DNA of 64,000 bases. Origin: Myxococcales bacterium. Its GTDB lineage: Bacteria; Myxococcota_A; Polyangia; Polyangiales; Houyiibacteriaceae. Below the pieces are notes generated by a model. That model did not search any database. It had not been told where the DNA came from and was given only the letters and a program-made list of their open reading frames with translations. Made by a program: the position numbers and the translations under genes. Of the stretch, positions 11,679-36,422 are shown piece by piece. The stretch lies in contig JAOTYL010000011.1 in the NCBI GenBank assembly GCA_029861865.1, forward strand, positions 84,517 to 148,516, in the 5' to 3' direction. Within the stretch, counting starts at the first letter, position 1, and each line of letters opens with the position of its first letter.

Positions 11679-14600
11679 CTACACCTTGATCTGGATGCCC
11701 AGCGTCTCGCGCAGTCTGAAATAGCTCTCGGAGATGCTGTATAGGACGATCTCTTTGACCTTGTCCCGCGGTGGAAGATCGGCGGTCGACTCGGACGCGA
11801 TTTGCTGCGTCATCCGCACGGCGGTGTCGACGTCGTCGCACAGAAGCAGGCCGGCCCGAAGCGAGGTGATCTCCGTCGCCTGCATCCAACGCTTGATGTC
11901 TGCCTTGCCTCCGGCTTCCAAGAACTTTCGCACGACCTTTTTGAGGACGTCCAGGTGAGCCTGATTGATGTGGCGTGCCAGCTGCTTGGCGGTCGAGTCC
12001 ACGGCTGGGTCGGCCTCGCCCATGCCGACGACACGCATCGCTGCCAAGAGGAGCGTACGAAGCTCGGTATGCGATTTGTACATCGTCCGAATGAAGTGCT
12101 CCCCGCGGTAGTAGGAGAGGTGTCGGCCGCACACGAAGGCGAGGTCGACTGGACGGTACCCCGACAGAAGCGTGTACCCGGTGATGATGGCTGGCGGGTT
12201 GCTTCGCGCCTCGTCTCGAAGCGCGCCCGAGAGCTCTTTCTGAATGAAGAGGCGAACTGGGATAGTGATGTTCAAGACGTCCTGCGCGAGCTTGAACTGC
12301 CGTGCGAGCGCGAGGCTCGGGTTGGCGAGATCTTCGGGCTTACGCTTGTGCAGGTTGAGCTTCTTGTCCGTCCAGGCCATCGACGCGCGCACCGCCGGAG
12401 CGATGACCTCCATGATCTTGGAGATGTAGATATCCTGGTCCGGGTGCATGAGATCTTTGACCCACGCCTCGTTGCTGACTCGCGCCCTCGGCTGGATCTC
12501 TCGGTCCTGCCGGTACTGCTGGAAGAACTTCTGCTGCTCCTCGTCCGCTTTGGCAAAATAGGTCAGCGTTCGCGCGATACACCATGCCTTGTCGTACGCG
12601 CGTGCATCGAAGTAGAGCTTGTAGAGCGCTCGATACGACTCGAGTCGATTCGGGTCGTGCCCAAGCAACCATTGGTGCTCCGCGATAGCCTCCGTCGTCT
12701 TGTCCGGCATCGTCGCGTAGAGCTCGGCGAGAATCTGGTGCTCGGTGGCGTCGTCCGGCTTGAGCGCCGCCGCCATCCTGAAGGACTCGGCTGCCGCGTC
12801 GAAATTGCGCTGACGGTCCCTGTAGATGATGCCGAGTGTATGCCAGAGGTTGTGCTCGAGGTCGGTATTGCCTTGGTTGATGATGCGGTGAAGCATCTTG
12901 CGGTAGGCGCGCTCGAGCGCCTTCCAGTCCTTACGACCATTCAGAAGCTTGTTGACCGCCTCGAAGGGCTTGAGCTGCGTGCTGTCGAGGTCGAGTGCCT
13001 CGTTGAACTTCTCGAGCGCAGCATCCTCGTCCTCGAGCTTGTCGCGAAGGATGACGCCCACGGTATATGCGTACTTGGCCTTGGCCTCATCACGCGCCTC
13101 GAGAGAGCTGACGCGCTCGATGACATCGATCGCCTCGGACCAACGCTGGGCAGCCTGGTATGTGCCGAGCAACTTGTGAAGCACCACGTGGTTATCGGGG
13201 TCGAGGTCGAGCGACTCCGTGAAGGCCTCTGCTGCCGCGTCTGGTGAGCCGAGCTTGTCCTGCCAAAGGTCGCCGAGCTCTACGAGCAGTTTGGCGCGGG
13301 CGGTGGGTTCATCGGTGACATCCAGAATGCGCTTCTTGTACTCGACCACCGACTCCCAATCGCTTTCGCGAGCTTGAAGGTCGACCATCGCCTCGAGTGC
13401 AGGCACGTAGTGCGTGTCCTCTTCGAGAGCCTTGTCGAACATGTTGCGCGCCTTCTTGTCCTCGCCCTGCTCACGCTTGATGACGCCAAGCCGGTATAAG
13501 ATCTCGGTGATCTCGTCCCTGCCGAGGGAATCGCGGTGTTGGACCAACAGCACTTGGTGGTATTTGAACGCGTCTTCCCATCGCTCCGCACGGAAGTAGC
13601 TTCCAGCAAGGCCCTTGATCGTCGCCGTGCCATCGGCATCGAGAGCGTGCGCGCGTTCATAGGCCGCCACCGCGGCGTCCGCGCGACCGAGGTTCGTCGC
13701 CGTCTCGCCCAACAAGGAAGCCAGGCGGTGCTGCTCGTCTCGTTCGCGCTTATCCGAACGCTTGACGAGCACCTCGAGAAGCGGGAACGCCTCTTCGTAG
13801 CGACCCTGGGCCACATAAAAGTCGACCAACGGGAGAAGCGCGTCCTCGTTGTCCGGGTCGAAGGCATGTGCCGACTCGAAGGCATCGACGGCTCCGGCCT
13901 CGTCGTCGAGGCGCTCGGCGCGAATACAGCCGAGGTCTACCAATCGCGCCGCTTTGACGCGCTCGTTGTCGGTCTGCTCGACCTCCAGGCCGAGCGTCTT
14001 CGTCGCGGCGATCCAGTCGCCCGAGTCGATGTGGATGCGCCGCATGGCTTCGAGCGACGGCAGGTCCCCCGGATCCAAATCGACCGCGCCCTGGAAGTGC
14101 TCGAGCGCCGACGCGCGGTCCCCGAGCTCCTGGTCGAGGATGCGACCCATTCGGTGCTTGAGAGACACTTGCTCGTCGACCTCGTCCACGACGCGAACCA
14201 ACTGGCCCATCATGTCGAGCGCCGCCGAATGGTCACCCTTGCGCTCATAGAGCTTCGTGAGCGCCTGGAGGCTGAGAATGTCTTGGTCGTCGAGGTTCAG
14301 GGCGTTGAGATAGCTGTCGATCGCTTGCTCGGCGTCGCCCTTGTGCGCGCCATACACCTGCCCGAGCGCGCGGAAGATCTCAATCCGTCGTTCTTGGTCC
14401 ACCGTCGCACTCGCGTGGCGGTCATAGGTCCGCACCAGGTCGTCCCACCGCTGCGTCAACCGATAGAGGTCTTCGAGCTTGCAGAGGGCTTCGTCGTGCA
14501 GCGGGTCGATATCGAGCACCTGTTCGAGGCGCTCGACGGCGTTCTCGGGCTTGCGAAACTCCTCTTCCCACATGCGGGCCAGACGAACCAGGATGTCGAT

Positions 14601-17600
14601 CCGCTCCCGCTCGGTCGCCACCACTTCGTACTGGCGTTCCAGAATACCGACGAGGTCCTGATAGCGCTCGGCTTGCTGATAGAGCCGCTCGAGCCCGCGA
14701 AGTGCAGTCAGATTCGAAGGTGCCAGCTCGGCCGCCTTCTCGAAATTCTCGATGGCTGCCTTTTGGTCGTCGAAGCGCTCCTCGTATGCCTCCGCGACCT
14801 GCAGGAGCGCCGCCACGACGCTATCGACGTCTTCGACAGCCTCGGCCTTGCGCTCGAGGATGTTGAGCAGCTTGTTGGAGCGCCCATCCTCGCGGTAGAT
14901 GCGCTCGAGCGCCTCGAGAGCGCCCACGTGCCTCTCCTTGAGGTGAAGCGCGCGCCGATAGTAGTCCTCCGCCTCTTGTCGCATTCCAAAGCGGTCCTCG
15001 GCGAGATCACCCATGCGCACGTAGGTATTGGCCTTGACGTCGTCATCGTTGGTGAGCTCGACCAGCTTGGCGAGGACTTGAGCGAGATTGTCCCACTGCT
15101 GGGTCGTCTCGTAGAGGTCGCCGAGTTGCCACCACGCCTTGGCGTTGCTCGGGTCGAGCGCTCGAATCTGCTCGTAGTACGGAATCGCGTACTCGGGATG
15201 ACCGAGGTCTTGGCCGTACCACTTGGCGCAGCAGAGGCAGATGGCGATCTGGGTGGCTGGGTCCTCCACCTCTTGGAGAGTCTGGTTGGAGGAGCTGAGA
15301 AGCTCGTTCCACTTGTCGGTCGAGGCTGTGACGCGCTCGAGGTCGAGGATGGTGTCCCGCTTGCTGTAGTCCTCGGTCCAAGCGATGTAGAGCGTATGAT
15401 AGGCCTGCTCACCATCTTCGAGTTTTTCTTCGTAAACCCGCGCAGCTGCTCGCAAAAGCTCGATGCGCTCGTCGCGGTCGTCCGTCGCTTCGATCCGCGT
15501 GACGTAGAGGTCGATCAGCTCATCCCAGCGCTCGGCTTCTTTGTGGAGCGCCTGGAGCTCGGAAAAGGCGTACTCGTGCATCGGGTCGACATCGAGGATG
15601 CGACCGAAGGCGCCCGCAGCACGGTCCTTGTCGCCAACCTCGGTCTCCCAGAGCTCGGTGACGGCGAGGAGCTGCCGCACCTGGTCGTGCGGGTCTGTGA
15701 GCGCCTGAGCGCGCTGCTCCATCACGCCGATGGCTTCCTCCCAGTCCCGCTCTTCACGATGGATGAGCTCGAGAGAGTCGAGCGCCTCGAAAAAGGTCGG
15801 GTCGACTGTCAGCACGTTGCGGTATGCCTCGACGGCGTCCCCTGGCTGCTGTAGCTCGGCACGGTAGATGTGACCGAGCTGCATGTAGACATTGACGAGA
15901 TCCGAGTCTTCGAGGGTCGCAGCGCCGACGTCGATGATGCGATGTAGAGTGTCCGCGCGTTCGCGAGACTGCCCGCTCGCGCGGAGAATCTCTGCAATGC
16001 TGAAGAGCGCGTAGGTGTTTCCCGGGTCTACGTCGAGGACCCGCTCCCAGTTTTCGATCGCATTGCGCTCGCGCTCGAGCTTCTCGTACCAAACCCGCGC
16101 CAAGTCGGAATAGACCTGAATGCGGAAGGAGTCGTCCTCGGCGATGGACGCCTCACGTTCTAGAACGTCGACTAAATCTCTCCAATTGCCCTGTGACGCG
16201 AAGATGTCGCCGAGTGCGTTGAGCGCCTCCGCATCCTCTCCCCGAAGGTCGAGAACCCGCTGCCAGAGCCCAATCGCCCGCTCCGGATCCCGCAGGCGAT
16301 TCGATGAGAGTCGGGCCATCCGCGCGAAAACGTCCGCCTGCTGCGAGTCGCCCAGCGCAATACTCAGCTCCTTTTCGAAGGCGGCAAACAGCTCGGGCCA
16401 CCGCTCGAGCTTCGCATAGATCGCCTGAAGAGCCTGAATGGTCTCGGCGTGCTCCGAATCGTAATCGTTGAGCAGCTTGGTGAAGACCTCGATCGCTCGT
16501 TCCGTACAACCGAGCTTGGTCTCGAGCTCGCGGCCCAATCGATAGTGAAGCTCGATCAGCTCGGAGGTGTTGTTGGACCCGTCGATTCGCTTGCGAAGCA
16601 CCTCTGCCAGTGCCTGATGCGCCTTGTGCTGCGAGTAGATGCGGTCGAGGGCTTTGAGGGCCGCCTCATCATGATCGTCGACGCCCAGCACGAAGCGATA
16701 GGTCGCCTCGGCTCGCTGCACGTCGTCGAGTTGCTCTTCGTAGACCCGCGCGAGCCGGCGACCGAGCTCCGCTTTGCTGAGCGGGTCACCCGTGTGCTGA
16801 ATGCCATTGGCATAGGTATTCGCCAACTGACTCCACCCGTCGACGATGGCCGATAGGCGCTCTGCCTCGCCCAGCGAATGATCGTGACTCGGATCCTCGA
16901 GCACCGCTTTTTGCATCCACTGGAAGGCGCGACCGTGGTCGTCGGCCTTGTCCTCCGCGATTTCGGCGAGTCGATGCATCATGACGACGCGTTCGATCGG
17001 ATCGCTCTGGTGCTCTACTTGAACCTCTTGGATGGACAGCAAGCGGTCCCAGTTGCCCTGCATTCTGTACAGCGGCTCGAGCACCTCACCGATCTGCAGC
17101 GGGCGTACGCCACCTGCGAAGAGATCTTCGAGGGCCGAGACAGCCGGCGAGTACTCGGGCGCAGCAGCGATGATCTCGCGATACTGTTCGATTGCCGAAT
17201 CGACGTTGCCGATCCGGTTCTGGTAAATCTGTCCCGTTCGGAACTGCAGGTTGAGCACATCCTCAGGGGTGGTCGCGATAGCCGCCTCTTTCTTGAGGGT
17301 CGCTGCGAGGTCGTCCCAGCGCTCGGTCTGCTCATAGAGGCGATCCAGCGCTTCGATGGCTGCGACGTCCCCTGCATCGATGTCGACGACGAGCTGATAT
17401 CGCTCGATCGCGGCGTCCACGTCATCGAGCTGAACCTCGTTGATCATCGCCGAGCGCTTTGCGAGGTGAACGATGTCTTCGGGCGTGTCCTCCCGATGGC
17501 GCTCGACCTCGGCATCGTACCGAGAAGCCACCTCGCGCCAACTGCCCGTTTGCTCCGCCAGCCTCTCGAGCGACGAAAGTGTCATGTCGTTTCGGACATC

Positions 17601-20600
17601 GAGCGGCAACGCGCGCGCGAACGCCCCGAAGGCCGAAGGCGGATCCTCGAGCTGAACCTCGTAGATCTCCGCCAGTTGATGGAGCATTTCGACCCGATCG
17701 GCCGGGTCTTCGGTATGCCGGACCTGTACCTCACGCGCTTCGACGAGCTTTTGAAACTCCCCGCCCTCGCGGTACACACGCTCGAGCACTTCAGCTGCTG
17801 CCAGCGGCTCGACTGCATCCCTGGTCATCGTCGTCAACGACTCGAGGGTCGGTTGGTGGTCCGAGGCCACGCTGAGAATGTCACAATAGATCTCGATCGC
17901 CTGCGCGGGGTCGTCGAGGTGACGCCGCCAGAGCTCGCCGATACGGAAGCGAATTTCTAACCGCTCCGCCTCGTCGACCATGAGGTCCGATTGGCGCTCG
18001 AGCACCTGAAGCAAGTCTCGCCACTGCCCAGTCTGCTCGAAAAGCCCGTCGAGCCGGCCCAATGCGCTCAAGTCGTCCGGGTCGATCGCGAGAACGCGCT
18101 GGTACGCTTCGATCGCCCTCTCCGAGTCCTCGAGCTGATCTTCGTGGACGCGGCCGATGGCGGTGAAGAGCTGCTTGCGCACTTCGGCATCCGTGATGAC
18201 CTCGGACTTGCGCTCGTACGTCGCGAGCAGCTCCTCCCACTTGCCAAGCCGCATCTGAAGCTCGATGAGCCGGTCGAGTGATTCGATATCGTCCGGGTCG
18301 ACCTCGAGCACCTGCCGATGGACAGCCATCGCGTCCGTGGGCTTGTCGAGAATGTCCTCGTAGATCGCCGCGGCTTTGATCAACTGTTCACGCTGGTCGG
18401 CTGGCGATGGGAGCATTCGCGCTTTGCGACGATAGATCGAGGCGAGGTCCTCGTACCGCTCCGTCTGTTGGAACAGGCGCTCGAGAGCATCGGCCGAATG
18501 ATGATGCTCCTCGTCGAGCTGCAGCACCTTCTGATAGTGCTCGACGGCGCGATCGACTTGTCCAAGCTCGTTTTCTCGGATCTCCGCGGCTCGCAACAAG
18601 AACCCCACGGCAAGCTCGGGATCGTCGAGAGTGGCGACCACTTGCTCGTAGACGCTCGCCAGCGCATCACCTCCGCCGACGGCTGCGCTCAAGCGCTCGA
18701 GCTCCTCGCGTGTCTGCGGGTGGCCTGGGTCCGCCCGGAACGCCCGCGCGAAGCTCTCGAAGGCCCCGTGGAGATCGCTGACCGAGAACTCCTGGAGCTT
18801 GGCGATCTCGTGGAACAGCTCCACGCGTCGCTCCGGCGCGGTCGCGTGGTGCGCTTGAATCTCGTACACGTCGACCAATCGCGCCGCAGCGCCCACCTCT
18901 TTGTAGATCGGCTCGAGAATGTCTGCGACCGTGGCCTGGTGCTCGGCGGACTCCAGCAGTCGTTCGAGGGCCCCCAAAGCGGCGGGATTGCTAGCGTCGT
19001 TGGCTAGCACATCGCGGTAGATCTCGATGGCGGAAACGGTCGAATCCATCCGTTGCTCTCGCAGGTCCGCAAGTCGCAACAGGAGCGCGGTCTGCTCGTG
19101 CGCGTCGTCGGTCATCGCCAGCTGCCGCTCGACATTGTCGGCGAGGTCGGTCCAGTTGCCCTGGCGAGCCAGGAGGTCGTCCAGAGCGCCCAGTGCCCGT
19201 CGACTCGACGGGTCGAGCTCGAGGATCTCGTTTTGAAGCCGGATCGCCTGCTCGGCGTCTTCGAGCAGGTCGGCCTGGATCCTCGCCATCTCGGCGAGCA
19301 CGCCGATCTTGTCGTCGGGATCCGCCGTTGCCTCGACACGCATCCGTAGAATTCCCACCAGCTCGTGCCAGCGCTGTGCGCCCCGATAGAGCCCCTCGAG
19401 GGCGTCGAGAACCTCGAAGTCGCTGGGGTCGGCCTCGAGCACCTTGCGGTACGCCGCGACCGAAGCGTCCATGTCCTGAAGCTGGGTGTCGTGGATTTGA
19501 GCGGTCTTGATCCACAGCGAACGGCTGAGGGACGCGTCATCCACGCTAGCTGCGAGATCGCCGGTGAGCTCGGCTAGCGTCGAAAATCGCTCATGTTCGC
19601 TCGCTAACATTTCGATGCGATTCAAGGTGTCGGCGTCCGACGGTTGCTCTCGAAACGCCTCGCAAAGAGACGAGAAGCCTCGATCGGCATCTCCGATGTG
19701 CTGGAAATACGTGTCGGCCACCCGAGTGAGCAGCTCGCGTCGCCGCCGGGGCTCGTTGCTGAAGCGATGTTGGACGCGGAGCGCGTTGACGTAGGCCCCC
19801 CAGTCGCCACTCAGCTCGTAGACGGGCTCGAGGACACACGAGGCCTCCGCCGCTACCTCATCGTGGCCGAGGAGCTCTTCGAGTCGCTCTTTTGCACCGT
19901 CGTGTTCCTCGATGAGCGACAGCACCTCACGATAGAGGTCCACCGCACGGGACTTGTCGTCGAGCCGGGTATCGCAAACCCGACCCAGCCGGAACTTCAG
20001 CGCCGCAAGCTCTTCTTCGGATTCAGGGCCGGCCTCGATCCGACGCTCGAGGAGCTGCGCGAGCCCCTGCCAACGGGACTCTGTCTCGTAAAGCTGCTCG
20101 AGATGGCGGCAGGCATCGGCTTGTTCGACCCCGTACTCGTCGATGATGCCCTCGAAACAGGCGATGGCCTCTTCGGTGTCATTCAGCGCATCGGCCCAGA
20201 GCTCCGCGCGCCGGTAGGCGATCTCGAGCCGCGCTTCGGGTTCTTCCTCGAGCTCGATGCGCCGCGCGTAGATCGCGAGAAGGTCGCGATACCGTTCGGT
20301 CTGGAAGTAGAGGTCGCCCAGCGCGGTAATCGCGGCCAGGTTGTCGCTCTCGAGGTCGTATACCAGCCGGAACTGTTCGACCGCATCGTCGATGCGCTCG
20401 AGCGCGGCCAAGGTCTGGCCGTAACTCAGGCGTATCGGCACCGCCTGGTGCGGATCTGCCACCGCTTCGATCGCCGACTCGTAGCCTGACACGAGGCGGT
20501 CCCAACCGTTCATCTCGCCCGCCAACCGCTCGGCATGAACGCGAGCCTCCTCCATCGAAGGCGCCAGCGCGAATGCCTCGAGATAGCGCTCGAACGCTGT

Positions 20601-21734: not shown

Positions 21735-21749
21735 GTTGCCTCAGCCCCC

Positions 21750-22619
21750 CTACGGCGATTCGGTCCTCAACTCTGCGAGACGGTCTTTTGCCGCTTTGAC
21801 GTAGTTTTCCGGCGCTTCGGCCCCCGCCATCATCACGTACTTGGTAAGATAGCGCTTCGCCTCCTCGTCGTTGTTTTGAAGGGCATAAGTCCAGCCTAAC
21901 GCGAAGAGCGCATCCGGCATGCCTGGCACGATGCCAAGCGCCGCCTGGAACTCCGCGACCGCGTCGTCGAACTTGCGCTGCTGCTGGTAGACGGTTCCGA
22001 GCAGATGATGGATGTTCGCTTCTTCCTCGGTGCCGGCCATCGCGACCTTGAGCGCCTCGCGCAACACCTGGGCAGCGTTGTCCGGATAGCGCAGGTCAGC
22101 GTACAAGCGACCGAGAGCCGAGTATGACGGGAGGAACCGCGGACCTGTTTTGATGGCGTCCGTGTACTGGTAGAGCGCATTCTGCGGATCCTCGACCTCT
22201 TCGTAGACTCGGCCGAGCTTGAAGTGCGCCTTGAAGAGCGACGGGTCGAGCTCGAGCGCTTCTTTGAATGACGCCTCGGCAGCCTTCCAGTCCTCGAGCT
22301 CGATGAGCACGGTGCCGAGCTTTTCGTGATAGCCAGCCGTATCCGGTTTCGCGATGACGGCTCGCTCGAGCGCCTCGCGAGCTGCGGAGAAGTTTCGCTG
22401 CTCGATCTGGACGATGGCCAGGTTGAAGTAGGCCTGGTGGTTGGTTGGGTCTAGAGCTGCCGCCTTCTCGAGCATCTCCGCGGCTTCGCTATACCGCTTC
22501 AGCTGGGCCAGCTCGACCCCAGCGTTCATCTCGTTCATCGACTCCACGCGGGCGCGCGAACAGTTGCCGCCCATCAGGATTAGACCGGCCAGAACCAAGC
22601 CGATTTTGTGACCTCGCAT
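21750..22619 (-). CDS. Exported TPR-repeat protein
   Basis: N-terminal signal MRGHKIGLVLAGLILMGGNCS, then about 6 TPR units. AGGAGG lies 6 nt upstream of the ATG. It ends 15 nt upstream of the giant TPR gene, so the two are probably co-transcribed. Confidence 0.75.
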   Translation of the reverse strand: MRGHKIGLVLAGLILMGGNCSRARVESMNEMNAGVELAQLKRYSEAAEMLEKAAALDPTNHQAYFNLAIVQIEQRNFSAAREALERAVIAKPDTAGYHEKLGTVLIELEDWKAAEASFKEALELDPSLFKAHFKLGRVYEEVEDPQNALYQYTDAIKTGPRFLPSYSALGRLYADLRYPDNAAQVLREALKVAMAGTEEEANIHHLLGTVYQQQRKFDDAVAEFQAALGIVPGMPDALFALGWTYALQNNDEEAKRYLTKYVMMAGAEAPENYVKAAKDRLAELRTESP

Positions 22620-22825
22620 GCGTGCCTCCTACGCTTGGAAATTCACAAGCACTTCAATCCTACAGCATTTGTCGTGCAGCCAACAACTCTAAACTAAGCT
22701 ATTTTTCAGGCGTTTCCGCCTTTTTGGCGAAGCCGCAGACAGCCCCTCGGCCCTGAACGTGGGAACAGGGCTGGAAATCCGGGATATTAGAGGGAAAACG
22801 CGCTTTTCAGCTGGCGACTCGACCG

Positions 22826-24847
22826 TCACTGGCCTGCGGCGTCGAGAAGGAACGGATAGTTCACGACCACCACACCACCCCCGTCGGGGGCCGGGAAGGT
22901 CCACCTGCGAACCGCGCGCACGATGCAGCTCTCGACCGCCTCGTTGCGGAGGCTCGAGCTCGCCACCATCGCAGACTGGACGGAGCCGGTCGGCGAGATC
23001 ACGAATCGCGTCGTGACCCGGCCCTGAAGGTCGGGGCGTGAGTTGAGCTGCTGCTCGTAACAGAACTTCACCTCATTGATGTGGCGTCGGACCACGCGTC
23101 GAATGACTTCCTTCGAGAGCGAGCCGCGAACCTCTGCGCCGCCACTGCGTACCTGGGGAACACCGGCCGATCGCCCGCGGAACCCGCCCGCGCCCCGGCC
23201 ATAGCCACCCTCGCCTGCACCTCGGCCGCCGCCTCGGCCTATCGTGCCGAAGTTGCCCATGCCGATCGTGCCTTGGCCCAGGCCGCCACCACCTCGCCCA
23301 GTGCCTCTGAGACCGAGGCCGCCGAACCCGAAGTTCTGACCGATGTCGTCGCCCGTCATGGCGCCAAGCGCGCTCATCGGATCATTGCCGAGGGCAAAGT
23401 CGGCACCGTACGGCGATGTCGGAGCGTTGAATGAACCCTGCATGGCTGCCAGCGTCCCGATGATTCCAGCCGTCCTCGCTTCTTGCTCAGCTTGCTCGCG
23501 CGCCATCTGTGGGTCTGGGTTGTCCTCCGGTCCCTGGATGCCGTACTTGTTGCGGTTCTTTTCGGCCTTTTCGTCGCCCATCTGGCCCTGCTCGCCCTCG
23601 TGGGCCTTGCCTGTGCCGCCACCGGACGAATCCGCACCGTTGAGCCACTCGGGCTCTGGCTCTTCGAGCTCCTCAGGCTCCATCAAGAACTGGATCAGAC
23701 GCGAATCGGTGCTGAGCAGATCGGAAGACAGGCCGCGGGGGCGCGGAGGCTGGAAGTAGAACATCGTCAACACAAGGCTCGCGAAGAGCGCTGCGCCAGC
23801 GACGTAGATCATCGGGCGGACGTCGATCTTGGCGTGGCCCGCAACCTTCTTGCCGGCCTTCACGTCTTTGACGATGAACGTGAAGTCGCGGTGCGTCATT
23901 CGAACCGCGCCGCCTTCGGGCACCGGGAATTCCGTCGCACCCGCCATCGCGCTGCTTGGGCGAAGCTCGCCTTGCCCCCGCATCAGGTCGAAGGAACGCG
24001 TCTGCTCACCGATTGTCGCTTCGCCCTTTGCACCTTCTGGAATGATCGCAGTGACGCCTTCGCCCTGTGCAAGACAAAGCGGCATCCGGTCGACTCCGAT
24101 CGCATCGTGGCCGAGTATGAAGTCGACTTTTTCGCCATTGGGCTCGCCGACGTAGTAATCGCGCGCAGGCTTCAGGTAGTCGACGTTGAGGACGCTCTTG
24201 TCCCCCCAGAGCACCGACACCTCGATCGCGCGTTCATTGGTCTCGATCTCGTGCGAAGGCACGGCGCCGGTGGTCGCGATAAGGCGGTACTCATCCCCGT
24301 CTTCACCGACCGTATTGGCAAACGGCGTACGCGAGAGCCGCTTGGCCCCTACCTCGAACGGGTTGAACTTGGGGCCGGAGTCATCCTCTTCCTCTTGGAC
24401 CACGGCTTTTTGTCGCGGCTCAGACTCCTCATCGACCATTGCGGTCATCGCATGCTCGTCGACGACCGGCGTCTGCCGCTCAGCACCCACCGCCATGGCG
24501 ACAGGTGGGCTCGAGGCCATGGCCACTTTGCCCGTGATGATGTCGACGTGGATCCGCTTGTTGCCGATCTGAATGATGTCGCCGGTCTGGAGCTTGCGCT
24601 TGTTGACCTTGTCGCCGTTGACGAGAGTCCCCGAAGCGGAACCGAGGTCGATGATGTACACCTCCCCTGGCGCAGCGACCTCGATGACTGCGTGCATTCG
24701 GCTGACCTTGTCGTCCTCGAGACGAACGTCGCTCGTCTGCAGCCGACCGATCTTGATGATCTCTTGACTCAGCGTTTCAGTGCCAAGCAGCTCGTCCCCG
24801 TCATAGACGGAGAAAGCGACCGAAGTATTGTGACTCGAATCACTCAC
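22826..24847 (-). CDS. FHA-domain / single-TM / Gly-rich / AgmX-PglI-type TonB-like C-terminal domain protein (GltG/PglI- or NfsG-like)
   Basis: N-terminal FHA (IKIGRLQTSDVRLEDDKVSRMHAVIE...IIDLGSASGTLVNGDKV). TM helix MIYVAGAALFASLVLTMFYF. A Gly/Arg-rich linker follows. The C-terminus is GSLSKEVIRRVVRRHINEVKFCYEQQL...VVVNYPFLL, as in the AgmX/PglI C-terminal domain. Confidence 0.8.
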   Translation of the reverse strand: MSDSSHNTSVAFSVYDGDELLGTETLSQEIIKIGRLQTSDVRLEDDKVSRMHAVIEVAAPGEVYIIDLGSASGTLVNGDKVNKRKLQTGDIIQIGNKRIHVDIITGKVAMASSPPVAMAVGAERQTPVVDEHAMTAMVDEESEPRQKAVVQEEEDDSGPKFNPFEVGAKRLSRTPFANTVGEDGDEYRLIATTGAVPSHEIETNERAIEVSVLWGDKSVLNVDYLKPARDYYVGEPNGEKVDFILGHDAIGVDRMPLCLAQGEGVTAIIPEGAKGEATIGEQTRSFDLMRGQGELRPSSAMAGATEFPVPEGGAVRMTHRDFTFIVKDVKAGKKVAGHAKIDVRPMIYVAGAALFASLVLTMFYFQPPRPRGLSSDLLSTDSRLIQFLMEPEELEEPEPEWLNGADSSGGGTGKAHEGEQGQMGDEKAEKNRNKYGIQGPEDNPDPQMAREQAEQEARTAGIIGTLAAMQGSFNAPTSPYGADFALGNDPMSALGAMTGDDIGQNFGFGGLGLRGTGRGGGGLGQGTIGMGNFGTIGRGGGRGAGEGGYGRGAGGFRGRSAGVPQVRSGGAEVRGSLSKEVIRRVVRRHINEVKFCYEQQLNSRPDLQGRVTTRFVISPTGSVQSAMVASSSLRNEAVESCIVRAVRRWTFPAPDGGGVVVVNYPFLLDAAGQ

Positions 24848-24859
24848 CCGAAACCCCCA

Positions 24860-25141
24860 CTACAAATCTTCCACAGATTTCAGCATCTCGGGAATAAAAT
24901 GCTCGCGAATCTGAATTAGCGATGCTCGGCGCCCACGACGCCGAACGATCAATTGCTCGCCATCGGGTCGAACCAAATCGCCAGTGACGAGGTCATCCTC
25001 GAAGTCATAGGTCGTCTCGGGTGCCGGCCCAGCCTGCGCCTGGACAACAGGCCCTGTTGCCACCGAGACTAAAGCCAATAATCCAATGAAAACAAGGGCA
25101 TATAAAGCGAACTTCGAAATTGTATTGCTCATGTTTACCAC
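24860..25141 (-). CDS. Small single-TM protein, GltF/NfsF-like by position
   Basis: 93 aa with TM helix FALYALVFIGLLALVSVA, then an acidic segment (DFEDDLVTGDLVRPDGE) and a basic one (RRRGRR). It sits between the GltE-like and GltG-like genes with 0- and 12-nt spacers. Confidence 0.5.
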   Translation of the reverse strand: MVNMSNTISKFALYALVFIGLLALVSVATGPVVQAQAGPAPETTYDFEDDLVTGDLVRPDGEQLIVRRRGRRASLIQIREHFIPEMLKSVEDL

Positions 25142-26428
25142 CTAACCCGCGACCTGCATGGCCTCGATGGAGATGTTGATGTTCTGCATGCGTCCGGGTC
25201 GACACTTGGGTGCGCCGCGCTTCTTGCTCGGCCTCGGCCCGCATCGATTGTTCACATCGTCCACGCTCGAACGAAACTCGGGCTGGTTGCCGGCCTTTTG
25301 CACGAATTCGGTGAAGTACTGCTTCGCCTTCTTCAGGTCAGCCACCGAACCCGACATGTAGTCTTGGTAGAGCACCCCGAGATTGAAGTACGCCTCGGGA
25401 CGGCGCGGGTCGAGTTTCTGCGCGCGTTCGTATTGGGCCTCGGCCTCTGGGAAGCGCTCTAAGCCTCGAAGGGCGGTGCCGAGCCCGATGATGGCCTCGT
25501 AGTTGTCTGGCTGGAGGGCGACCGCCCGTTCGAAGGCCTGACGTCCGTCCTCGTATCCGCGGAACGAAATCGTCACCTCGCCAAAGTTCATCTGCGCTTC
25601 GAAGAGGTCCGGATCGAGCGTGATAGCCTTTTGAAAGAACCGAAGCGCCGCAATGACATCGCCCTTGTAGACCTTGATCAGGCCCCACGTGTTGTAGATC
25701 GGCGCATAGTCCGCATCGATCATCTGAGCCTGGCGGCAGACGACCTCGGCGAGGTCGAGCTCGGCGGCATTGCCTTTGCGACCGCGGTCATAGTGAAGGA
25801 GCGCCATCTGGTTGAAGGCCGAGAGGTAGTCCGATTCGATGGCGAGCGCGCGACGAAGATTCTTGAGTGCCTCGTCGTCCTGGCCTTGTGCCCGTTGTAC
25901 GATGGCGAGGTTGGTGTAGCCCGACGTGCACTGCGGATCGTCATTGATGGCCCTTTCGAACTCGGACTTGGCTTGGCTGCCCTTTCCGCCCTCCAAGTCT
26001 TCGAGGGCGAGCGCCACCCGGGCCTTGCAGAACTTTGGATCGACTTTGAGAGCCGTCTCGTAGTGCTTCTTGGCTCCACTGTCGTCACCGCAACGTTCGA
26101 GAGCGAGCCCCGCCATGTAGTGAGCCTCGGCGAAGCCGCCACCCTGCGCAGCGGCGGCTTTCTCGAAGTCCCTCGAAGAGGCACCACACTTGGCCGGGGT
26201 CCAGCCCGTCTTCTCATTCCGTTCGAAATCGTCGAGAGCGGACCCCCATCGGTTGTGTGCCTTCTTGCTGACGGCGCTACCGTCGGCGGTCGTGATCGCT
26301 TCACCCCCTGCGGTGCGGGCGACGTCGGCCCTTGGGACGGTTTCCCTCTTCGTCTTTGCGCTCTCGCCACCGCCGCAGCCCATCACGAGCATGGCGACGA
26401 CGACTGCCAGTTTGCGATATCGCATCAC
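25142..26428 (-). CDS. TPR lipoprotein, GltE/AglT- or NfsE-like
   Basis: Lipobox MLVMGC followed by multiple TPR units. ATGA overlap with the upstream gene. Confidence 0.65.
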   Translation of the reverse strand: MMRYRKLAVVVAMLVMGCGGGESAKTKRETVPRADVARTAGGEAITTADGSAVSKKAHNRWGSALDDFERNEKTGWTPAKCGASSRDFEKAAAAQGGGFAEAHYMAGLALERCGDDSGAKKHYETALKVDPKFCKARVALALEDLEGGKGSQAKSEFERAINDDPQCTSGYTNLAIVQRAQGQDDEALKNLRRALAIESDYLSAFNQMALLHYDRGRKGNAAELDLAEVVCRQAQMIDADYAPIYNTWGLIKVYKGDVIAALRFFQKAITLDPDLFEAQMNFGEVTISFRGYEDGRQAFERAVALQPDNYEAIIGLGTALRGLERFPEAEAQYERAQKLDPRRPEAYFNLGVLYQDYMSGSVADLKKAKQYFTEFVQKAGNQPEFRSSVDDVNNRCGPRPSKKRGAPKCRPGRMQNINISIEAMQVAG

Positions 26429-29400
26429 GGCTTCCCCCTTTCCGCGACGGCATCCTTGGACGTCAGCGACGTGTCCTTGATGGCGCCCAGATCCACCGCA
26501 CCGGGCTCTCCGACCGTGTGCTTCACGTAGTTGGGCTCGCCGCGGAGCTCAGCCGCGACGGGATATTGCTTCGGGTTGAGCGCGTTGAGCTCGTGCTCAC
26601 AGGAGCGCGACCACTTGTTGAACCATCGCACCTGGGTGGCGGTCTTCAGGCAGAACTCGAACTTGTCGATCGCCTGCCGCTGAAGCGGCTCGGACGCGTC
26701 GTCGAGAGCACCCACATAGATATCGAAAAGCCCTGGGTCCTTTTCGATTTCGCGTGGAATCGGAGCATCCCGGAACTGATCGACGAAGCTGCGGTACATC
26801 TCACCGGTCCGCGATGCGGCCGCGATCTGCCAGGGGGCCGACTGCATTTTGGCGCCATCTAGGGTGACCGTCATCTTGGCGACCTTGGCGTAATCGGCCT
26901 CGGCGGAGCGGAGCACCCCGAGTTTCTTCGTCATCCACCGTTTGAACTCGGTTTCCGACCACTTCTTCACCTTGGCCGCGCTCTTGCCGCCCGTGTACTT
27001 CGGGAAGGCAATCTTCTCGAACTCGGCGAACTTGTACTCGGACAAGTAGAACTGCGATTCGGCAGCGCTATCGAGCGCTTCTCGCATGAAGGCAACCTTG
27101 CTCTCCTTCGAGGTGTCCTTGAGCGCTCGAATCTTCTTGGGCGCACCCGAAGTCCAACCCTTCACCGCAGTCGAGAAGTACTTCTTGGCTTCGTTCTTCC
27201 TGTTGAGCTGCCAGTAAGCCCGGCCGATGGCGGTGTTCGCCTCAATGATCTGATGCGGCATCCCGACCCTGCCGTACTTCTTCAGATAGTCCTGGTAATG
27301 AGAGATCACCTGGGAATGTCGGTTCTGTCGCTCGTAGATCGAGCCGATCGAAAACATGACTTGCGAAGTCTGCCTCGGAAGCTTGCGCCGATAATTACGA
27401 GCGAAGAGGTCCGAGTCCTCCATGGCTGCTTGGTCGTCACCGAGGCCGATGCGGAAAAAGGTCGCTTGCTCGAGGCCTTCGATGGCGTTTGGACAGATGC
27501 CCGCCTTCTTGTCGTCAGCATCGCACTTCTTGCCGTCTTCGCCGGGGAACTTCCGGGCGAACTGCTCGTAGTACTTGGCGGCCTGCTCGTAGTAGGCCAG
27601 TGCCTGGAAGTTTTGACCGATCAAATAAATGGCCTTCTTCGACAGTGCGCTCTCTGGGAAGCGCTCGATCATCACCGTTCGAACCTGAATGGCCCGACCG
27701 AGAAGGTGAGCTGCCTCGAAATTGATCGCGGCGTTGTAAAGGACTTCGTCCATTTCGCCACATTCTTGGTGACGCCGAAAGATGCGGACGTACGTGGCAG
27801 CTGCCTTCTTGAATTGCTGCGTCTTTTCGTAAGTCTCGGCTTCCTTCCGGCGCACCTGACACTGAAGCGTGCTCAGGGTGCCGCAGAGGTCTGGATGCTC
27901 TTCAGCAAGCTGCTCGGTACCACAGAACGACGCCGACATCGGGTCGATCGAGGCGCCTAGCTCCTGCACGCATGCCACACGCGGCTCTGCGAGCTGCGTA
28001 CCGAGGATATTCAAGCAGTCGAGGTAGAGGTTCGCGGCGTACTCGGAAAGCTCGCTGTCCTTGTGATTGAACGCAATGTCGCGGAACAGGACGGCAGCCT
28101 CCTCGAAGCGGTTCGCCTCATAGTAGATTCGAGCCCGGCGATACTTGATCGTCGCGAGATCCTCGGCCTTATCGACGTAGCAAACGTATCGATTGAAGGC
28201 TTCGAGCATGCCCTTTTGAAGAGGCGTGAACTTCTTTTTCTTGAGCTTGTCTGCCTCGGCAGGCGTGGCGTTTTTCATCGCCTTTTGGTCTCGCTTGCTG
28301 ACGAATTTCGTCTTGGTCTCGCGAGGCACGTACTGCTGCTGGTAAAGGTTGTTGTAACAGAGCACTGCCGCGTAAGCTGCGTCGCTCGTGAACTCACCCT
28401 GCGGGTTCAGCTCGACCACCGAGTCGAAGGCCGGCCCACACTGCCCCCACTCCTCCATCTTCCATAGAAGCTCGGCGTAGAAGTACGAAATCTTGTATTC
28501 AGTCGGCCAATCGCGACGGTCGATGTTCTTGAACTCCATTTGTTCCATGTCTGGAAACTCTTTGAGAAGAGTTCGGTAGAGCACGGAGGCTTGCGACATC
28601 GTCTTCTTGCTCTTGGTGCCTGGAGCCGAGTCCGTCCCCACGGCCTCGCGGTGCCACGACGTGGCGAGCCAAAGAATGGTGGTCGCGGTCTCGACCTTGC
28701 ACTCCTCGACTTTGGCGGTAGGCTTGTTGCTCTCTTTGAACGTGCGGTAGATGTCGACCAAGCGCTTGAGCTCGATGACCTGCTCCTGATTCGAGCGTGA
28801 GGAGATCACCGCGTTGGTGACTTTCGTCTGCCAGTCACAGAGTGAATTGCTGCGAGGCGCGTCGGCCATCAGCTTGTGATAGACCGTAATCGCTTGCGGC
28901 CACTGGCCGGTGTCGAAGTAGAGCTCGGCCAGGTTTTCGAGCATCTCGTGAGCCTCGGCGTCGTTCTTCGCGTACCGACGGAAGAAATCGAGCGCCTTAC
29001 CGGGCGAGCCGTAGTGCGAATACGGAAGCACCAGCTCCTTTCGAGCCTGGCGCGCGAGGTTCTTGGCGTCGTTGGCGTACTTGTTCTTGCGGGCGAACTC
29101 GAGAATGTCGACGAAGCCCTGCAATGACTGGCGATAGCGCTCGCGGTTGTACTCGACCCACGCGACCTTGTAGAGCGCGTAGCCATAGACGGAGTTGTTC
29201 TTTGGCGGAAACTCGAGAACCTTTCGGTAGAACTTTGCCGCCGCCTCCATGTCGCTATCGTTGAAATAATACTCCGCGAACGAGAGATAGGCGTTCGGCA
29301 CGAAGCGACTCTTCGGGTAGTCCTTGATCAACCGCCGATAAACCGCGCGAGCTTTGTCGAACTGGTCCTGCTCTTGGAGCGCGAAGGCCAAAGAGAACAG

Positions 29401-30042
29401 GACTTCATCCATGCGCTTGAAGTTCGGATGGTCGCGAACGAGAGTCGCATAGGTCCGAATGCTGTCGTTGCGGGTCGCATCGAGGGCCGCCGTGGCCTTC
29501 TTTTGACCCTCCCGCGCCTCTTTGCAGCGGGCCTTGTCCTTGTCGCGGGTGCAGGCCTCATAGATCGGGTCGTCGAAGGATCGCACTTTCGCCGTTTGAG
29601 CGATTTGCATCTCGAACTGCGTCTCGGCGAGTCGAAGCAATACCTGAGGCCGCCGCGGATCGTCATCGGAGCTGTTCTTCACGAGGCGCTCGAGGATTTG
29701 GACCTCGCGCTTGAGCAATGCCTCGGTGCGGGCGCGGGTCTGTTCGCGCCCGAGCCGGGTGCTCATGTCGATTTGAAGCGACGGACCCGTAGGCCCTTGC
29801 TTCTTGGTCTGCTTGCGCTCGGCCTCGTGGAACCGAGAGACCGGAACGTTCCCGCCCTCCTTCGCACTCCCTTTCTTGGCACCGGCAGGACAGGCAGCGA
29901 TCGCCTGCGCGGTGGTCTCAGGAATGCAAACAGGCTCGAGGCTCACTGGCGCTTGCTCTGCCGCGGCCTCGCCCCCCATCACGACGACGAGGATTCCGAA
30001 GAGGAAGCTCGTCACGTATTTTGATTTGTTCAACGCGTACAT
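26425..30042 (-). CDS. Large TPR protein with N-terminal signal anchor (1205 aa), GltD/AgmU- or NfsD-like
   Basis: N-terminal hydrophobic helix TSFLFGILVVVMGG, then TPR-like helical repeats throughout. Its size class and its position directly upstream of the TPR lipoprotein and FHA-TonB genes match the gltD-E-F-G order. Confidence 0.65.
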   Translation of the reverse strand: MYALNKSKYVTSFLFGILVVVMGGEAAAEQAPVSLEPVCIPETTAQAIAACPAGAKKGSAKEGGNVPVSRFHEAERKQTKKQGPTGPSLQIDMSTRLGREQTRARTEALLKREVQILERLVKNSSDDDPRRPQVLLRLAETQFEMQIAQTAKVRSFDDPIYEACTRDKDKARCKEAREGQKKATAALDATRNDSIRTYATLVRDHPNFKRMDEVLFSLAFALQEQDQFDKARAVYRRLIKDYPKSRFVPNAYLSFAEYYFNDSDMEAAAKFYRKVLEFPPKNNSVYGYALYKVAWVEYNRERYRQSLQGFVDILEFARKNKYANDAKNLARQARKELVLPYSHYGSPGKALDFFRRYAKNDAEAHEMLENLAELYFDTGQWPQAITVYHKLMADAPRSNSLCDWQTKVTNAVISSRSNQEQVIELKRLVDIYRTFKESNKPTAKVEECKVETATTILWLATSWHREAVGTDSAPGTKSKKTMSQASVLYRTLLKEFPDMEQMEFKNIDRRDWPTEYKISYFYAELLWKMEEWGQCGPAFDSVVELNPQGEFTSDAAYAAVLCYNNLYQQQYVPRETKTKFVSKRDQKAMKNATPAEADKLKKKKFTPLQKGMLEAFNRYVCYVDKAEDLATIKYRRARIYYEANRFEEAAVLFRDIAFNHKDSELSEYAANLYLDCLNILGTQLAEPRVACVQELGASIDPMSASFCGTEQLAEEHPDLCGTLSTLQCQVRRKEAETYEKTQQFKKAAATYVRIFRRHQECGEMDEVLYNAAINFEAAHLLGRAIQVRTVMIERFPESALSKKAIYLIGQNFQALAYYEQAAKYYEQFARKFPGEDGKKCDADDKKAGICPNAIEGLEQATFFRIGLGDDQAAMEDSDLFARNYRRKLPRQTSQVMFSIGSIYERQNRHSQVISHYQDYLKKYGRVGMPHQIIEANTAIGRAYWQLNRKNEAKKYFSTAVKGWTSGAPKKIRALKDTSKESKVAFMREALDSAAESQFYLSEYKFAEFEKIAFPKYTGGKSAAKVKKWSETEFKRWMTKKLGVLRSAEADYAKVAKMTVTLDGAKMQSAPWQIAAASRTGEMYRSFVDQFRDAPIPREIEKDPGLFDIYVGALDDASEPLQRQAIDKFEFCLKTATQVRWFNKWSRSCEHELNALNPKQYPVAAELRGEPNYVKHTVGEPGAVDLGAIKDTSLTSKDAVAERGKP

Positions 30043-31658
30043 AGGTTAGTCACCTGTTGTCGATAGAATCCCAACTCGTCTCGCCAGTACTCCCCATTGA
30101 ACGGCCATAGTTGGTGTTCTTCGTCCACCTCGACGTCGCCGCCCCTCGATTGCTTGGCCAACGCCATCTGCTGTTGAAGCTCCTGATCGATCTGTCCCCG
30201 CCGGAACGTCGCGATCTCGAGCTCGACCGTGTCGACCTGGTTGCTCAGGTCGCGAAGCTCGCGTATCAGTCGGTTGTAGCGCCCACGCGCGAGGTCGCCC
30301 GCCTGATCGACCGCGAAGGCCTTTGCGAGAGAGATGTCTTCGAGGATCTTCTCGCCAACCGGTGAGCCCTGGAACTCCCCGCTCGACTTGTTCAGACGCT
30401 CTTCTTCCTTGTCGAGAATCGAAACGTACTCGAGATGCTGAAGCACGGTGCGGTCGCTCAGAGCGGTGGCCACGATGGGGCGCACACGCTGCGACAGGTC
30501 AGCCTCGCCAACTCGAACCGCCTTTAAGAACTCGAAGAAGTCCGCGTTGTCCTGATGCTTCGCAAGCACCGCGTCGAGCTCGTTTTTGACCGGATCATAT
30601 CGGTCGTGAAACTTGGCTACCGTCGCATCGGCATTGTCGACCTGGCAGTTCACGAAGAACGTAACGGCCTTGAGCACGAGCGCTTCAGGATAGAACGAGT
30701 CCTCGAAATACGGCGAGAACAGGGTGTGAACGTTGCCCAGCGAGCGGGCGTATTCGTCGGCCAGGAAGAACGCCCATGACGATTCGAAGAGCGCGTCGAG
30801 CCAGTACTCGCTTGATTGCGAGACCTTGCTCCAGGACTCGACGGACTGACCAAGCAGCGTTCCATCGATCTTCGTCCCTTGGTTAGCCGCCGTGTAGTAG
30901 ACGCGAGCAAGCGAAATCCAGGCGAGGTTGGTCATCCGGGCTTCGTCGACGCCTTTGGCATCGCCACTGTCGACGACGTCGAGAATGGCACGAAACGAAG
31001 CGATGGCGGGCCGCGCCTGACGCATCCGAATGAACGCAATCCCCTCGAAGAACTTCGCATACGTGTATTGCTTGGAGCCGGGGTCGACTTCCTGAAAGAG
31101 GTCGATGGCCTGACGGAAGTCCGCCTGGGCGTAGAGATGACGCCCCATCAAGTAGAGGAGCTGGTTGTGGAGAGCTGAGTCTTTCTCTTTGAACTCTCCG
31201 AGTGCGCCGATCCCGTACCGGCCGACGATGCCGATGATGCCCGACGACTCTGGAAGCTTCGAAGCGAGCTTGCCGAGCCACTCGAGAGTATCGCCGAAAA
31301 ACAAATGACCGGGGCCCTGCTCGCTGACCTCGTCGAAAACGCTAAGCGCGGACTGGTAATAGCCCGCCGCGTAAAGCGACTGCCCCAACATGAACTGCGC
31401 CTTCTGTCGATTGCCTCGTCCGTCCTTCGACTTCCCCGCAGCGACGCGCTGGAAACCCATCGCCGCCTCTTCGTAGTCCTTGGACTCGAACGCGCTCAAC
31501 GCCGCAGCTAGCCTCTTCGATGGTTTGCCGAGCTTTGCCGGTGCACCGCTCTGCCCCGTCTCTTCGAGACCGAAGCTCATGTCCTGCGCGCCGGCGGGCG
31601 TGCCAACCCACGAGCCGACAACCAACACAGGCACCGCCCACAAATGGATCCACTTCAT
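30030..31658 (-). CDS. Periplasmic TPR-like protein, candidate GltC/NfsC-like
   Basis: I prefer the ATG at 31658 (MKWIHLWAVPVLVVGSWVGTPAGAQD signal peptide), preceded by AAGGAG with a 6-nt spacer. The body is helical-repeat-like. Its 3' end overlaps the next gene's start by 13 nt. Confidence 0.45.
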   Translation of the reverse strand: MKWIHLWAVPVLVVGSWVGTPAGAQDMSFGLEETGQSGAPAKLGKPSKRLAAALSAFESKDYEEAAMGFQRVAAGKSKDGRGNRQKAQFMLGQSLYAAGYYQSALSVFDEVSEQGPGHLFFGDTLEWLGKLASKLPESSGIIGIVGRYGIGALGEFKEKDSALHNQLLYLMGRHLYAQADFRQAIDLFQEVDPGSKQYTYAKFFEGIAFIRMRQARPAIASFRAILDVVDSGDAKGVDEARMTNLAWISLARVYYTAANQGTKIDGTLLGQSVESWSKVSQSSEYWLDALFESSWAFFLADEYARSLGNVHTLFSPYFEDSFYPEALVLKAVTFFVNCQVDNADATVAKFHDRYDPVKNELDAVLAKHQDNADFFEFLKAVRVGEADLSQRVRPIVATALSDRTVLQHLEYVSILDKEEERLNKSSGEFQGSPVGEKILEDISLAKAFAVDQAGDLARGRYNRLIRELRDLSNQVDTVELEIATFRRGQIDQELQQQMALAKQSRGGDVEVDEEHQLWPFNGEYWRDELGFYRQQVTNLCTR

Positions 31659-31977
31659 AAAGTGCTCCTTGGTGTGGAAGCTTGGTTTTCCAAGTTTCCC
31701 CTTGACCCCCAAAATTCGAACGAAACCAACCCCTTGTGTCTCGCCCGGGTACCATCATAGAAACCAGCCGAAGGGGTCGTCAAGGTATAGCGCCATTGAG
31801 CTTTTGATGGGCTGACTGCAATTGGCACTGGAATCTTCCTCGCAGACCTGACAAATTTGGTAAGAGGCGTCGGTTTCGCCGGCATCTCCCTTTTCTGACC
31901 CCCGACGGCGGGGGAAGTTTGGGTGCGATCTCTTATTGCCGTTATGATGAGGGTGACCGGGGGCTTGTTGAGGGGGC

Positions 31978-32412: not shown

Positions 32413-32416
32413 AAGC

Positions 32417-36253: not shown

Positions 36254-36422
36254 CCATCCGGGACGATGTCGATATCGGTCGAAAATCGCTACCGGATTTG
36301 GTAGTGCGATATTCGCCATGGTATAGTCTTGTCGTCCGAACGGAAACGGACACTTGTCATGTGATTTCAGCGAGTTGTCACCGGTGGGGGACCGGGCGCT
36401 CCAGGGGGAAGGCCGGCGGCCA

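Follow-up and report, generated by a model that had tools for sequence, protein, structure and literature searches.

A probable Polyangiales version of the Glt envelope complex, encoded by a joined gltC–G and gltI cluster in an uncultured myxobacterium

Which envelope-spanning machine is encoded by a run of seven same-strand genes in a 64,000-nucleotide (nt) stretch of an uncultured Myxococcales bacterium (order Polyangiales; assembly GCA_029861865.1, contig JAOTYL010000011.1, positions 84,517–148,516), hereafter called the window? In Myxococcus xanthus the Agl–Glt genes fall into three sets, G1 (gltD–J), G2 (gltK-B-A-C) and M1 (aglRQS), and the paralogous Nfs system is encoded by nfsA–H. An initial annotation, made from the letters of the window, took the seven genes for a Glt/Nfs-type trans-envelope cluster of intermediate layout and offered three explanations for it: an ancestral arrangement, a hybrid of two systems or a third functional variant. 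We conclude that the region probably encodes a Glt ("gliding transducer") complex that spans the envelope, in the version found in Polyangiales. As such it is an ordinary further Glt cluster, in an arrangement that was already known and had been tabulated in 2011. Because this layout had been listed for Sorangium at that time and is conserved across the order, it is not a hybrid but a common and probably ancestral one; the ancestral explanation is thus supported, and the intermediate or hybrid origin and the third functional variant are not.

Read directly in the window, all seven open reading frames (ORFs) lie on the minus strand (Table 1), and the tight packing that had been described for them proved exact. 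The genes for the C- and D-like proteins overlap by 13 nt and those for the D- and E-like proteins by 4 nt, the E- and F-like genes abut with 0 nt between them, and a 12-nt spacer separates the F-like from the G-like gene. A gap of 206 bp follows, in which AGGAGG stands 5 nt before the ATG of a gene for a tetratricopeptide repeat (TPR) protein of 289 amino acids (aa), and 15 nt separate this gene from that of the terminal TPR giant. The domain descriptions of the seven proteins also agreed with the translations and model matches: the C-, D- and F-like proteins carry signal peptides, and the E-like and 289-aa TPR proteins carry lipoboxes.

Homology to Glt components was evident from profile hidden Markov model (HMM) searches. 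The C-like protein matched the GltC model NF033756 (5e-86, 290 bits, cut-off 450) over profile positions 118–619 of 622, the E-like protein the GltE model NF033758 (3e-34, 119 bits, cut-off 225), and the F-like protein, which sits between E and G, the CglF (=GltF) model NF033764 (4.7e-17, 61.8 bits, cut-off 90). The G-like protein matched the GltG model NF033760 over its full length (4.7e-117, 392 bits, cut-off 650), together with NF033768 (AgmX/PglI C-terminal domain, 115 bits), PF00498 (FHA, 1e-18) and Pfam TonB_C. Its domain plan comprises a cytoplasmic FHA domain, a transmembrane (TM) helix, a Gly-rich linker and a periplasmic AgmX/PglI (TonB-C-like) domain; for the other cluster proteins Pfam gave TPR families only. 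The D-like protein had no specific model and only generic TPR/YbgF matches in NCBIfam and Pfam. It is colinear (32%) with the D gene in the syntenic slot of Sorangium sp. So ce1000, and its best match among four Corallococcus clusters was GltD (221 bits, versus 189 for G4 and 162 for Nfs). The core "Group B" genes gltC, gltD, gltE and gltG are therefore all represented, contiguously and on one strand.

Two Corallococcus genomes served as the yardstick for these comparisons. They were reached through an MglA look-up, for which an NCBI protein of 97% identity and PDB hits confirmed the probe sequence; the phylum samples, of which the GltG model covered 151 genomes and the CglF model 401, contained no Myxococcaceae. 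When Corallococcus GltI, GltG, GltE, GltC, GltB and GltA were compared with the genome, the best match of each was a window gene, and for GltC this was the C-like gene at 177 bits. HMM matches, reciprocal best hits and synteny thus bear out the proposal of a Glt-type trans-envelope cluster. On the GltG model, Corallococcus GltG scored 1033 bits, the window protein 392, NfsG 352, G4 183, the second cluster of the same genome 173 and G5 163; on the GltC model, Corallococcus GltC scored 1060 bits, the window protein 290, NfsC 208, G4 75, the second cluster 75 and G5 64. On both Glt models the window proteins therefore come out slightly ahead of their Nfs paralogues. The F-like protein matched Corallococcus gltF and nfsF at 43–44% over the C-terminal 51 residues (tblastn).

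The order of the genes is conserved far beyond chance, because it recurs in more than 50 independent genomes. One genome per species was scanned with a 9-sequence GltG alignment, which gave 80 loci for relatives of the G-like protein, and the seven window proteins were compared with these loci by tblastn. By identity the loci comprised metagenome-assembled genomes (MAGs) at 85–89%, Sandaracinaceae/Sandaracinus at ~50%, and Sorangium, Byssovorax and Polyangium at 35–37%. C-D-E stood in this order 5′ of G in 51 of the 56 loci with enough flank, and a giant gene lay 3′ of G in 57/64 related loci. The identical order was found in Sorangium sp. So ce1000, So ce134 and So ce1014, Byssovorax, Polyangium sp. 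6x1, Sandaracinus and many MAGs, as well as in other Myxococcota families (genomes G013, G059, G080, G095, G076, G106 and G111). The genes 5′ of gltC in G111, considered as gltK-B-A, were rejected as such: by eye, their translations resemble rimM, trmD and rnhB.

This arrangement has a published precedent in Sorangium cellulosum So ce56, for which Table S3 of Luciano et al. 2011 (PMC3169522) lists sce2914 (C, 568 aa), sce2915 (D, 1289 aa), sce2916 (E, 497 aa), sce2917 (F, 90 aa), sce2918 (G with FHA, 681 aa), a gap at sce2919, and sce2920/2921 (GltI). The corresponding C–G proteins of the window measure 560, 1205, 428, 93 and 673 aa. The same table gives sce2906/2907 as A/B-like genes, sce2991–2996 as two divergent aglRQS triads and sce5940–5945 as a second G-F-E-D-C cluster. 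Gene for gene, the So ce56 configuration is that of the genome studied here: the counterparts in So ce56 and in So ce1000, So ce134 and So ce1014 share the order C-D-E-F-G, small TPR gene, GltI, and Sorangium and this genome have in common a gltB/A-like pair that lies several genes upstream, beyond ftsY, HEAT and HAMP-only genes, two divergent aglRQS-like triads and the second cluster. The differences are of degree. Identity between the Sorangium and window proteins is only 32–42%; the Sorangium giant exceeds that of the window by ~520 residues at its N-terminus, and the So ce56 annotation splits it into two genes; and the present genome, from an uncultured lineage, is three times smaller than that of Sorangium.

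Compared with M. xanthus, the window differs in that gltC is joined to gltD and not to gltK-B-A, that gltJ does not follow gltI, and that a TPR lipoprotein gene occupies the gltH slot, with no gltH found by tblastn. Anaeromyxobacter provides a fuller joined layout, since Adeh_3326–3310 are listed as K-B-A-C-D-E-F-G-H…I-J (Luciano et al. 2011, Table S3, PMC3169522). As in the window, gltC is there contiguous with gltD–G and GltI is encoded in the same locus; seen in Anaeromyxobacter but not here are K-B-A genes that immediately precede gltC, an H gene following G, six genes that part H from I, and a J gene following I. The same authors noted that G1 and G2 are joined in Anaeromyxobacter, and described an ancestral core in which gltC, D, E and G were linked with aglRQS, a linkage lost in Myxococcus (Luciano et al. 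2011, PMC3169522). Conservation, trees and precedent together lead us to infer that C-D-E-F-G-x-I is the common, vertically inherited arrangement and that the split G1/G2 layout of Myxococcus is derived. An old arrangement passed on vertically is indicated because the layout is conserved and congruent with the tree across Polyangiales and beyond. With so many genomes showing the joined order, the split layout of Myxococcus stands out as the exception and the joined one as the common state.

Over its whole length the window giant aligns colinearly with that of Sorangium (41% over 3345 aa, C-terminal domain included) and also with giants adjoining gltG in six other genomes. It ends in a non-TPR domain of ~400 aa, has no signal peptide and matches generic TPR families only. 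Corallococcus GltI (4121 aa) found it as the top match in the genome, at 26% over 3302 aa and reaching the C-terminus. In comparison with the giants of Sorangium, G095, G076, G106 and G111, those of the window and of G059 are without the N-terminal extension (~450–650 aa) of other GltI homologues. A second TPR giant of 3747 aa is encoded among housekeeping genes on another contig (C6:613413–624656); it aligns with the window giant at 26% over ~3000 residues, and the C-terminal non-TPR domain is unaligned.

Trees were built from the D protein alone and from concatenated D+E+G proteins (2203 columns), an analysis that had been suggested to place the locus with Glt, with Nfs or outside both; the two trees agreed. 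The window cluster fell inside a 100%-supported Polyangiales clade, in which it branched, in step with taxonomy, with close MAGs, then Sandaracinaceae, then Polyangiaceae. This clade joined the giant-linked clusters of G013 and of G076, G106 and G111 with 100% support, and the giant-linked clade as a whole was sister to Corallococcus Glt with a Shimodaira–Hasegawa-like approximate likelihood ratio test (SH-aLRT) value of 92. Outside it lay Nfs, G5 and a clade of G012, G024 and G042, whose mutual order was unresolved. Forcing an exclusive Glt+Nfs clade made the tree 13.7 log-likelihood units worse (approximately unbiased (AU) test, p=0.042). The D+E+G analysis revealed no part of the cluster with a differing phylogenetic origin. 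We read the window cluster as probably branching outside both Glt and Nfs and nearest to Glt; the physical link to GltI tips the balance toward Glt. The clusters of G012, G024 and G042, from Myxococcota genomes of 5–6 Mb and 50–60% GC, form a well-supported separate clade with the nfs-like order (A/B-like)-C-D-E-F-G-(H-position gene), and no giant occurs within the 35–60 kb fetched per locus.

Next to the cluster, the window holds a gltB/gltA-like pair (36354–38236, plus strand) that had gone unmentioned. The two genes are translationally coupled by a 4-nt overlap and lie 4.6 kb from gltC, on the opposite strand and not contiguous with it; ftsY, HEAT, HAMP-only, SRPBCC and small divergent genes stand between. 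The gltB-like protein matched TIGR04565 (OMP_myx_plus, a myxobacterial outer-membrane β-barrel domain) at 71.8 bits (cut-off 60), is 44% identical to the sce2907-like 310-aa Sorangium sp. protein in the syntenic position, and in phmmer matched Corallococcus GltB (1.2e-15) and GltA (7.4e-14). The gltA-like protein reached 34 bits with TIGR04565, under the cut-off of 60, and in phmmer matched Corallococcus GltA (1.3e-10) and the gene directly 5′ of the gltC-like gene in genome G024 (3.6e-13). The upstream neighbourhood is syntenic with So ce1000, where a divergent small gene, HAMP-only, HEAT and ftsY genes are followed by a β-barrel gene.

Within the 64-kb window there is no GltJ-like gene and no aglRQS, as the initial annotation had stated, and a search of the 4.23-Mb genome found such genes on other contigs. 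Four MotA/ExbB loci were present: Tol-Pal on C8, ExbBD on C18, and on C5 (141719–145666) two divergent, back-to-back TolQ-TolR-TolR (aglRQS-like) triads, the same pair as sce2991–2996. Two GltJ-like proteins, with an MJ0042-type zinc ribbon (ZnR), a GYF-like region, a TM helix and an AgmX/PglI tail, are encoded at C21:102631–104478 and C11:8182–9867. MglA (C18:226559–227149) scored 346 bits to M. xanthus MglA structures (PDB 6hjh, 5ymx), and a gene for an MglB-like protein of 160 aa lies directly 5′ of mglA. The genome thus shares with the Agl–Glt systems of M. xanthus and Corallococcus homologues of GltA, B, C, D, E, F, G and I, the MglA/MglB polarity module and TolQR-type triads, as well as the GltG domain plan of FHA, TM and AgmX/PglI tail and a cytoplasmic GltI. 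Among the components looked for, of which GltH was not found, this small-genome (4.2 Mb) uncultured member of the Polyangiales has retained most of the parts known for gliding, with Glt, two Agl-like motors and MglAB, and also a G4-type paralogue.

Table 1. Features of the window, with positions in window coordinates and the grounds for each assignment.
Feature	Position	Strand	Grounds
gltC-like periplasmic TPR protein, 560 aa	30030–31712	-	NF033756 match; likely start ATG 31658
gltD-like exported TPR protein, 1205 aa	26425–30042	-	synteny, tree, Corallococcus GltD match
gltE-like TPR lipoprotein, 428 aa, lipobox LVMGC	25142–26428	-	NF033758 match
gltF-like small exported/single-TM protein, 93 aa	24860–25141	-	NF033764 match
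gltG-like inner-membrane protein, 673 aa	22826–24847	-	NF033760, NF033768, PF00498
Intergenic gap, 206 bp, from gltG-like gene to TPR-lipoprotein gene	22620–22825	-	read directly
TPR lipoprotein, 289 aa, GltE paralogue	21750–22619	-	NF033758 match, conserved slot
gltI-like cytoplasmic TPR giant, 3351 aa	11679–21734	-	colinear with Sorangium giant, Corallococcus GltI
gltB-like outer-membrane β-barrel, 327 aa	36354–37337	+	TIGR04565, phmmer, synteny
gltA-like outer-membrane β-barrel, 300 aa	37334–38236	+	TIGR04565 below cut-off, phmmer
Possible sigma-70-like promoter 5′ of gltC	31754–31783	-	consensus match only

The sequences themselves establish the homologies, the order of the genes and how widely it is kept, and the existence of the partner genes. 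By analogy with Myxococcus, we infer that the products would assemble into a physical complex, coupled to a particular aglRQS-like triad, and would support gliding. The G-like protein would act as the inner-membrane TonB-like coupler, presenting its FHA domain to the cytoplasm and its AgmX/PglI domain to the periplasm, and the giant would be a cytoplasmic TPR scaffold under MglA control. The periplasmic part would consist of GltD, GltE, GltF, GltC and the extra TPR lipoprotein, and the outer-membrane part of the gltB/gltA-like β-barrels. Power would come from TolQR-type proton channels, for which the two triads on C5 are the candidates, with GltG coupling the motor to the periplasmic TPR proteins and to the outer-membrane barrels. 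The motor would then push the Glt complex along the cell, and outer-membrane parts bound to the surface would set in motion either the cell itself or a polymer on its surface. The most likely outcome is surface gliding, which is also to be expected because cultured Polyangiales with the same locus glide.

Several observations weigh against the assignment to Glt. Every Glt family match falls below the NCBIfam equivalog cut-offs, which makes the window proteins distant rather than close orthologues. Support for Glt as the sister group is only moderate, and forcing the window clade together with Corallococcus Nfs costs 9.1 log-likelihood units and is not rejected (AU p=0.17); the tree holds one Myxococcaceae genome only and has long branches. 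The two GltJ-like matches to NF033761 are weak (8.8e-27, 94 bits, and 1.3e-25, 91 bits; cut-off 450) and unlinked to the cluster. Corallococcus GltH and NfsH found no match in the whole genome by tblastn at E<=1e-4; Luciano et al. 2011 (PMC3169522) regard H as having been added late and in restricted lineages. Finally, the organism is uncultured and represented by a 4.2-Mb MAG, and non-gliding bacteria are reported to carry "core" Agl/Glt-like systems, so that homology alone is no proof of motility (Luciano et al. 2011, PMC3169522).

The alternative that survives best, although we regard it as unlikely, is an Nfs-like machine that moves or wraps a secreted polysaccharide (spore coat, capsule) and not the cell. 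The order C-D-E-F-G, with gltC joined to gltD–G, is that of nfsA–H, the E and G proteins match Corallococcus Glt and Nfs about equally in tblastn, the AU test did not reject a tree that joins the window clade to Corallococcus Nfs, and the Agl, Glt and Nfs systems have been viewed as versatile surface transporters (PMC3858216). The G proteins of both systems carry FHA and TonB-like domains, and the presence of FHA was accordingly rejected as a discriminator between Glt and Nfs. In the nfs operon, however, A and B directly precede C, H comes after G and GltI is missing, and the window differs in all three: its A/B-like genes are not contiguous with C, no H-like gene was found, and the cluster is joined, as in most relatives, to a colinear orthologue of GltI. 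The Glt-model scores of the window C and G proteins exceed those of NfsC and NfsG (290 against 208 and 392 against 352), and the best tree gives Glt, not Nfs, as sister. The duplication that separated glt from nfs has moreover been placed in the terminal branch holding Myxococcus (Wartel et al. 2013), and an Nfs identity for the Polyangiales cluster is unlikely because of this placement.

Still less probable is a true Glt–Nfs hybrid or intermediate, or else a third variant whose function sets it apart from both. Such an origin would account for a layout unlike both of those in M. xanthus, with C joined to D–G, I present and no H, J or K in the cluster, and could draw on the conserved TPR lipoprotein in the gltH slot and on the shorter N-terminus of the giant. 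The same layout, however, is published for Sorangium and a fuller joined one for Anaeromyxobacter; its conservation and congruence with the tree point to vertical inheritance and not to recombination of two systems, and the D+E+G analysis gave no part of the cluster a different origin. That the genes encode generic TPR/TonB/FHA envelope proteins (for example Tol-Pal or TonB accessories) with no specific relation to Agl/Glt is hardly credible: the sub-threshold scores and the generic TPR matches of the D-like protein and the giant would fit it, but the full-length GltC and GltG model matches (E 1e-86 and 1e-117), the system-specific GltF and AgmX/PglI-tail matches and the reciprocal best hits with bona fide Corallococcus Glt proteins, the 4121-aa GltI included, speak against it, as do the separate canonical Tol-Pal operon on C8 and the ExbBD locus on C18.

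Within the Glt assignment, the conserved TPR lipoprotein between gltG and gltI is one mildly new point, and we flag it as an extra component in the place of GltH. The 289-aa protein matched the GltE model NF033758 at 5.5e-14, and its gene occupies the position that gltH has in Myxococcus. A homologue was found by tblastn in 59/62 giant-bearing related loci, spanning Polyangiaceae, Sandaracinaceae and several further Myxococcota families, and a Cys after a hydrophobic N-terminus was kept in all homologues inspected. In Luciano et al. 2011 (Table S3, PMC3169522) a counterpart is listed for Haliangium only, as the GltE homologue Hoch_5625 (296 aa) beside Hoch_5627, and sce2919 is left unassigned. 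The protein may take GltH's place as a link from the periplasm to the outer membrane. Tentatively, and with the odds somewhat against it, it could represent a structural part, so far unrecognised and present throughout the lineage, of the Glt machines outside the Myxococcaceae; if so, the textbook list of 11 Glt proteins would be Myxococcus-specific.

The initial annotation had also raised the case of a canonical glt or nfs locus elsewhere in the genome, with the window locus not co-conserved. The window locus is strongly co-conserved, and the second cluster, on contig C1 (138200–150960), is a paralogue of the G4 type and neither a canonical glt nor a canonical nfs locus. It comprises genes for a 237-aa protein, C (796 aa), D (1293 aa), E, F (89 aa), G (551 aa, without FHA) and a 225-aa protein, and EpsL-like and Wza-like polysaccharide-export genes come directly after it. 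Flanks included, it is the orthologue of the Myxococcus/Corallococcus G4 cluster (MXAN_1919–1923): the 237-aa protein is 53% and the Wza-like protein 41–42% identical to those of Corallococcus. G4-type clusters also occur in Sorangium and Sandaracinus and, C1 included, form a separate 100%-supported clade. The M. xanthus G4 cluster differs from the window cluster in having a G without FHA, a C of ~800 aa, no giant and adjoining polysaccharide-export genes. No role in motility was seen for G4 (Luciano et al. 2011, PMC3169522). The linkage to polysaccharide export, conserved from Corallococcus to this MAG, hints at a part for G4-type clusters in polymer handling.

Further observations concern individual genes of the window. 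The gltC-like gene more likely starts at ATG 31658 than at TTG 31712, because AAGGAG lies 7 nt upstream of the former and the signal peptide then stands at the start of the protein; the product would have 542 aa with an N-terminal signal peptide. A candidate promoter (TTGACG, 18 nt, TATGAT), which is a consensus match only, lies ~96 nt before this ATG. A consensus scan of the 206-bp gap found neither promoter nor terminator, and a promoter and terminator scan of the cluster gave nothing exceeding shuffled expectation. Third-position GC in the gltF-like gene is 0.54, versus 0.76–0.79 in its neighbours.

Two ORFs flanking the cluster were considered as missing components and rejected. A 244-aa ORF (32002–32736, minus strand), tried as gltA/B, is a spurious frame, Arg/Ser/Ala-rich, with no matches and poor codon bias; the real gene in this region is a divergent ORF of 144 aa on the plus strand. 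A secreted protein of 192 aa encoded 3′ of the giant (10959–11537, minus strand), tried as gltH or gltJ, had no family matches. It does not occur at the same position even in the same-genus genome G080 and is probably a recent orphan insertion. Just past the gltB/A-like pair and a HEAT-repeat gene, the ORF at 39053–40504 (minus strand) encodes a protein with dCache and HAMP domains and an MXAN_5187-family C-terminal domain.

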